Assembly (NCBI RefSeq): GCF_051903065.1
Contig: NZ_CP178438.1
DNA: 64,000 nt
Source: Escherichia coli
GTDB lineage: Bacteria; Pseudomonadota; Gammaproteobacteria; Enterobacterales; Enterobacteriaceae
Direction: 5' to 3' (one strand)
Of this stretch, positions 59,050-59,414 are shown piece by piece. A program made the translations under genes and the position numbers. A model generated the notes under the pieces. It was not told the origin of the DNA, did no database searches, and was given only the letters and a program-made list of their open reading frames with translations. Every line of letters begins with the position of its first letter. The first letter of the stretch is position 1.

Positions 59050-59169
59050 ATGTCTGGCAGTTCCCTACTCTCGCATGGGGAGTCCCCACACTACCATCGG
59101 CGCTACGGCGTTTCACTTCTGAGTTCGGCATGGGGTCAGGTGGGACCACCGCGCTACTGCCGCCAGACA
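59050..59169 (-). rRNA. rrfF: 5S ribosomal RNA, distal copy of rrnD
   Basis: 120-nt match to E. coli 5S rRNA with four differences from the rrfD copy in this window. Confidence 0.93.
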
Positions 59170-59206
59170 AATTCTTTTCTAATCTGCCGAACTTTAACCT
59201 AAAAAG

Positions 59207-59282
59207 TGGTGCTGATACCCAGAGTCGAACTGGGGACCTCACCCTTACCAAGGGTGCGCTCTACCAACTGAGCCATATCAGC
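59207..59282 (-). tRNA. thrV: tRNA-Thr (anticodon GGU)
   Basis: Minus strand reads GCTGATATGGCTCAGTTGGTAGAGCGCACCCTTGGTAAGGGTGAGGTCCCCAGTTCGACTCTGGGTATCAGCACCA (76 nt, CCA encoded). Confidence 0.95.
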
Positions 59283-59294
59283 ACGCTAAATTTG

Positions 59295-59414
59295 ATGCCT
59301 GGCAGTTCCCTACTCTCGCATGGGGAGACCCCACACTACCATCGGCGCTACGGCGTTTCACTTCTGAGTTCGGCATGGGGTCAGGTGGGACCACCGCGCT
59401 ACGGCCGCCAGGCA
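59295..59414 (-). rRNA. rrfD: 5S ribosomal RNA
   Basis: 120-nt match to canonical E. coli 5S rRNA (TGCCTGGCGGCCGTAGCGCGG...CTGCCAGGCAT). Confidence 0.95.

Follow-up and report, generated by a model that had tools for sequence, protein, structure and literature searches.

The distal 5S rRNA gene rrfF at the end of the Escherichia coli rrnD operon: an intact second copy with a compensated base pair in helix I

When two 5S rRNA genes stand close together at the end of one operon and differ in sequence, the question arises whether the distal copy is a functional variant, an ordinary second gene or a duplicate on its way to decay. This question is raised by a stretch of E. coli DNA of 64,000 nucleotides (contig NZ_CP178438.1), referred to here as the window, in which the distal 5S gene rrfF departs from the proximal gene rrfD at a handful of positions. 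A first-pass annotation had read a paired change in the terminal helix as the sign of a functional variant under structural selection. The analysis presented here favors a plainer answer, namely that rrfF is very probably an intact second 5S gene carried on the precursor of rrfD, with an old compensated pair and no special function implied.

The right end of the window holds an rrn operon on the minus strand, consisting of a 16S gene cut by the window end, tRNA-Ile, tRNA-Ala, 23S, 5S, tRNA-Thr, and a second 5S gene. The 23S rRNA gene (59507..62409, -; Rfam LSU_rRNA_bacteria, 2883 bits) puts both 5S genes inside the operon. The proximal gene rrfD (59295..59414, -; RF00001, 92.8 bits, full model) has the canonical E. 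coli sequence (C3, C12, G13, U87, and G117), and an rrf gene is annotated in RefSeq at the matching position in O157:H7 and K-12. Between the two 5S genes lies thrV, a tRNA-Thr gene with anticodon GGU predicted by ARAGORN (59207..59282, -; Rfam tRNA, 70.7 bits), followed by rrfF (59050..59169, -; RF00001, 89.5 bits, full model). Both 5S genes were matched over model positions 1-120, where the gathering score of RF00001 is 38. Directly after rrfF, a terminator scan found a T1-type intrinsic terminator with a 20-pair stem and a T-rich tail (59003..59046, -), and a T2-type terminator hairpin (58845..58870, -) lies just before the stop of the convergent gene yhdZ. The segment between them (58877..59002, -) corresponds to rrF, a small RNA belonging to the tRNA-linked-repeat family, as judged from the positions of a repeated 17-mer, a sub-threshold RtT match, and a published description (PMC8144298). 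Positions 58830-59300 of the window are 100% identical to E. coli O157:H7 strain PV15-279, whose annotation names both 5S genes rrf, the tRNA tRNA-Thr, and the convergent downstream gene yhdZ. The locus is the distal end of rrnD in its O157:H7-type form, running from 23S through rrfD, thrV, rrfF, T1, rrF, and T2 to yhdZ, and the placement of two 5S genes around tRNA-Thr in rrnD has been stated before (PMC4696680; PMC11883441). In rrfD, strain PV15-279 has U13, compared to G13 in the window.

The first terminator-like site 3' of the 23S gene is T1, after rrfF, and a site scan of the interval between rrfD and rrfF found no promoter-like or terminator-like site; on this layout, rrfF would be co-transcribed with rrfD on one rrnD precursor. 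The two 5S genes are also bordered directly by identical short sequences, GAATT on the upstream side and CAAAT on the downstream side, which we take to be the RNase E sites of the 9S precursor, and these flanks are kept in the distal 5S copies of all other genera examined. With a proximal 5S gene and thrV before it and a terminator and yhdZ after it, the distal gene has the surroundings of an rrfF orthologue, and the same layout occurs at loci of Salmonella, Citrobacter, Pseudocitrobacter, Pluralibacter, and Superficieibacter. Elsewhere in the window, a StyR-44 match (62417-62525, -; 122.9 bits) lies in the 16S-23S spacer directly upstream of the 23S 5' end, and two adjoining Rfam matches to naRNA4 (nucleoid-associated non-coding RNA 4) were recorded at 33068-33137 and 33159-33228 (-; 77.3 and 76.7 bits).

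Direct comparison of the two 120-nt genes at these coordinates bears out the earlier count of four differences. In RNA sense, and read from rrfD to rrfF, they are C3>U (59167), C12>A (59158), U87>A (59083), and G117>A (59053), and rrfF is identical to canonical E. coli 5S rRNA at 116 of 120 bases. The two unpaired changes had been recorded as C12A and one internal U to A; both are present, the latter being U87A, which turns GGGGUCUCCCC in rrfD into GGGGACUCCCC in rrfF. The paired change had been described as C3 with G118 becoming U3 with A118. The switch from C-G to U-A in helix I holds, but the Rfam consensus gives 117 as the partner of position 3 (59298 in rrfD and 59053 in rrfF), while position 118 pairs with G2. 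Both C3-G117 and U3-A117 are Watson-Crick pairs, and the double change is a compensatory base change that preserves pairing in helix I, as had been claimed; the U-A pair is structurally equivalent to C-G. The Rfam model starts at RNA position 3 and has 3/117 as its first consensus pair, which is marked compatible in rrfF. In the Rfam match of rrfF, no new non-standard pair was flagged relative to rrfD and helix I keeps standard pairs. The consensus leaves positions 12 and 87 unpaired, the former in loop A and the latter in hairpin loop D. Four substitutions placed at random yielded a pair-preserving two-sided change in about 1% of 400,000 simulations, so that the paired change exceeds what is expected by chance.

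Without constraints, minimum-free-energy folding produced a different non-native structure for each of the two genes (-50.9 and -45.8 kcal/mol) and was uninformative. The energies were therefore evaluated on the Rfam consensus structure. The values with different pairs at 3/117 were -23.5 kcal/mol for C-G, -21.4 for U-A, -20.8 for U·G, and -16.3 for C·A (opened), so that U·G is only 0.6 kcal/mol less stable than U-A. A larger example of covariation than the 5S pair is present in the 23S gene at 59607-59619 (-), where five clustered differences from K-12 rrlD (59608, 59609, 59613, 59617, and 59618) change a hairpin from ACCCT-TAA-AGGGT to AGACT-TTA-AGTCT, with two adjacent pairs swapped with compensation and one loop change.

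Allele-specific searches of a set of 5,426 complete E. coli genomes showed how the four bases are distributed within the species. A 3' end with A117 was found in 5,367 of these genomes (~99%) and the combination of U3 and A12 with the rrfF-specific upstream spacer in 5,274, one copy each in both cases; U3/A117 is present in one 5S copy of about 97-99% of the set. Its recurrence in thousands of genomes shows that this allele did not arise from sequencing error. In the O157:H7 genome, the allele-specific searches found A87, A117, and the U3/A12 context once each. The two loop changes are distributed differently from the paired change. A12 also occurs together with C3, in 1,383 genomes and in several 5S copies other than rrfF, and C12A is therefore not specific to rrfF. 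The rrfF gene of K-12 (BW25113) has U3, A12, and A117 but U87, whereas an A87-specific 39-mer occurs once each in 339 of the 5,426 genomes, namely O157:H7, O55:H7, and their relatives. U87A is a young lineage-specific change in loop D, fixed in the O157:H7/O55:H7 lineage and absent from K-12 rrfF. Taken together, the four differences appear to represent three separate histories, those of the 3/117 pair, of C12A, and of U87A.

The paired change reaches well beyond E. coli. A cross-species scan, in which each species was represented by one genome, left positions 3, 12, 13, 87, and 117 free and covered at least 120 loci; it demanded exact identity at the 115 other positions, a pattern that strongly diverged distal copies would escape. 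Among the matches listed, 132 5S genes comprised 119 with C-G at 3/117, 11 with U-A, two with U·G, and none with C·A (Fisher p = 2e-14, with copies that are not independent). All U-A copies among these matches were distal 5S genes after thrV, and they came from E. coli, Salmonella enterica subsp. diarizonae, five Citrobacter genomes, Pseudocitrobacter, Pluralibacter, and Superficieibacter, as well as from an isolate labelled Pantoea sp. IMH. The distal copies of Erwinia, Pantoea, Rahnella, Siccibacter, and Escherichia sp. ESNIH1 had C-G among the matches listed, which indicates that the 5S-thrV-5S layout is older than the U-A state. The origin of the U-A state, or at least its survival, seems to lie within the core Enterobacteriaceae, where it has been inherited since. 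The pair probably arose once in an ancestor, and a single ancestral origin means that the many U-A copies are not independent events.

Two further observations were made in this survey. Loop-A positions 12-13 (59157-59158 and 59402-59403 in the window) are hypervariable across Enterobacterales 5S genes and within genomes, with C, U, A, or G at 12 and G, C, U, or A at 13 (loci L003-L122). Position 12 of the distal copy was considered as a sign of concerted evolution, and no claim is made on this, the pattern being mixed and the site hypervariable. In Pseudocitrobacter faecalis, the proximal 5S gene has U3·G117 and the distal one U3-A117, and between the proximal gene and thrV comes a segment that resembles the tRNA-linked repeat and closes with a G-type repeat of the 5S 3' end.

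The tail of the operon carries a second record of the rrfF 3' end. The 17-mer ACTGCCAGACATCAAAT, which spans this end and the processing flank, is found at 59045-59061 and again at 58877-58893 (-), 168 nt downstream and just before T2, and both copies in the window carry the rrfF-specific A (A117-type). The RtT match in the T1-T2 segment is weak (24 bits, below the gathering score). Small RNAs named rrA, rrB, and rrF have been described between dual terminators, together with a repeated 18-bp sequence from the 5S 3' end (PMC8144298). Roughly 40% of E. coli genomes (77% query coverage class; loci L043, L124, and L128) lack T1 and the rrF segment at the end of rrnD. In these short-tail genomes, rrfF runs directly into the T2 hairpin, and the junction lies at the 17-mer repeat, suggesting that recombination between the repeats has deleted or inserted the segment. 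Both tail forms were seen in Citrobacter youngae, the long one at locus L046 and the short one at locus L087.

A small number of E. coli genomes carry alleles in which one side of the pair has changed. An exact 149-nt match with U3 and G117 in the rrfF context was obtained in 31 genomes, although several of these records are laboratory strains with only 6-7 places that match the 5S query (fewer than eight) and some of them could be assembly or polishing artefacts. In E. coli C, rrfF has G117, while the downstream 17-mer repeat keeps A. The opposite combination, C3 with A117, was found in one mouse-gut K-12 isolate (C3, A12, and A117), and one-mismatch matches suggest it in some 14 others, most of them isolated from poultry in several countries. 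A single locus of this poultry type was read, in strain E2, and has C3, C12, and A117. A count of 83 records at ≥99% identity to the C3 query was rejected as a measure of C·A alleles: among the best rows listed there was one full-length exact match, and the remaining rows are partial alignments to other 5S copies. A fully canonical 5S gene in the rrfF context gave no exact match in the search of E. coli genomes. These alleles point to partial gene conversion from other copies, which may affect either side of the gene and appears rare (~1% in total), and whole-gene conversion of rrfF was apparently not represented among exact matches. The existence of U·G and C·A alleles also means that selection on the 3/117 pair is not absolute.

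Copy number at the locus varies as well. Strain S103EC (NZ_CP076693.1, L128) has a triplication, 5S-thrV-5S-thrV-5S, with a hybrid middle copy (U3, A12, and G117) that accounts for its U·G match, and in strain TUM14668 (NZ_CP135646.1, L124) rrnD has a single 5S gene with an rrfF-type body and no thrV. Unequal crossing-over between the 5S repeats could have produced both variants.

Based on these observations, a plausible history can be proposed for each of the three components. The change from C3-G117 to U3-A117 would predate the split of Escherichia, Salmonella, and Citrobacter and would have been kept in the distal copy only; most likely, C3>U came first and gave a tolerated U·G wobble, and G117>A followed. 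C12A would be one of the states of an unpaired loop-A site that varies freely among 5S copies and species, and U87A a recent single-base change in hairpin loop D, fixed in the O157:H7/O55:H7 lineage. The persistence of U-A may be explained in part by the limited homology upstream of rrfF, which is shared with the other 5S genes over only ~8 nt, so that conversion tracts would seldom include position 3. On the downstream side, however, the long tail form remains homologous to rrnA and rrnB far beyond position 117, and such an edge-of-homology effect therefore explains the retention of U3 better than that of A117. In addition, alleles converted on one side, C·A and to a lesser degree U·G, may be mildly disfavored, since a working 5S RNA depends on a paired helix I. 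This argument is weakened by the small difference between U·G and U-A (0.6 kcal/mol) and by the surviving C·A lineage; the persistence of C·A in a poultry-associated lineage of ~14 genomes indicates weak selection on a single pair of one 5S gene among eight.

The retention of the pair in the distal copy leaves room for explanations that invoke selection. The distal 5S gene might be a long-lived, separately maintained paralogue whose U3-A117 pair has stayed distinct from the seven other copies since before the divergence of Escherichia, Salmonella, and Citrobacter, with selection on a copy-specific trait such as the folding or RNase processing of the thrV-5S-T1 precursor, but this is improbable, and simple escape from gene conversion would serve as the alternative. 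A related proposal, which we regard as quite unlikely, is that rrfF represents a specialised 5S isoform kept by selection for a distinct function, e.g., in thrV-5S precursor processing, in assembly kinetics, or in condition-specific ribosomes. Its appeal lies in the confinement of U3-A117 to the distal copy and its retention across at least six genera among the matches listed, and in its near fixation in E. coli although conversions on either side can be observed. Nevertheless, rrfF is consistently set apart by no more than a single isosteric Watson-Crick pair close to the terminus of helix I and is otherwise identical to canonical 5S; the distal copy has C-G like the others in Erwiniaceae, Yersiniaceae, and some Enterobacteriaceae; and the literature retrieved describes no distinct role for rrfF. 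The earlier reading of a functional variant under structural selection thus survives only in part: the gene is intact, its pair is compensated, and half-converted alleles are rare, but nothing indicates a functionally distinct variant.

The opposite view is that rrfF is a redundant duplicate, transcribed but drifting, with the paired change as a historical accident and little or no contribution to ribosomes. It draws on the fact that rrfF is an eighth 5S gene for seven operons, on its loss or reshuffling in some genomes (the single-5S rrnD of TUM14668 and the triplication of S103EC), on the tolerance of mismatched C·A alleles in one lineage, and on A87 in loop D, which was unseen in the other species sampled among the matches listed. 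On the other hand, only 3-4 differences per 120 nt have accumulated over a divergence that spans genera, with no indels, no truncation, and a full Rfam score; rrfF is retained in ~99% of E. coli genomes; the processing flanks are conserved in all genera examined; and C·A is absent across species among the matches listed. None of the marks of a pseudogene, such as truncation, indels, disrupted helices, or patchy presence, was found in rrfF, and we judge this view very unlikely. As the first-pass annotation had suggested, rrfF is not decaying: it is full-length, scores 89.5 bits, has the same flanks as rrfD, and keeps its signature in several genera. From these comparisons, it looks like a gene under pairing constraint. 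That the apparent compensation is a coincidence or a sequence error can practically be dismissed, since, even though one paired change among four differences is a small sample, its simulated probability is ~0.01, and sequence error is effectively refuted by the identical allele, which over 5,000 independent assemblies share with other genera.

The preferred reading of rrfF as an intact second 5S gene on the precursor of rrfD confirms the textbook expectation of an intact eighth 5S gene in E. coli with conserved pairing in helix I. It also has some practical consequences. Across Enterobacteriaceae, the rrfF locus is stably marked by the U3/A117 pair, and the U·G and C·A alleles, at ~1% in E. 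coli, allow partial gene conversion inside a gene of 120 nt to be followed in natural genomes. The O157:H7/O55:H7 lineage is cleanly marked by a single base, A87, which could be used to gauge the share of rrfF RNA in ribosomes. An in vitro study found rrnD-derived ribosomes to be inactive, with most activity restored when one rrnD polymorphism motif was reverted to the operon B sequence; the combination constructs of that study carried the operon B 5S, and the result therefore has no bearing on rrfF.

Comparison with known systems shows the rrfF variant to be real but unremarkable, a previously catalogued trait of a well-known gene. It shares with canonical E. coli 5S rRNA of the rrfB/rrfD type its length and consensus fold and differs in the third helix I pair, which is U-A instead of C-G, in A12 of loop A, and in A87 of loop D. 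The closest counterpart is K-12 rrfF in the arrangement rrlD-rrfD-thrV-rrfF, which has the same locus, the same neighbors (yhdZ, thrV, and rrfD), and the same U3, A12, and A117, whereas the copy in the window carries the additional U87A in loop D. The dual-terminator rrn tails described previously (PMC8144298) have the same order of T1, a tRNA-linked-repeat segment, a repeated 17/18-mer from the 5S 3' end, and T2; the window differs in that both of its repeats carry the rrfF-specific A. Finally, GC-to-AU switches in helix I through GU intermediates have been reported as the commonest class of compensatory change in bacterial 5S rRNA (PMC3433437). The change in rrfF is of the same kind, a GC-to-AU switch in helix I with the GU intermediate present in relatives, but the two states known from comparisons between species coexist in the window as paralogues within one genome and one operon.
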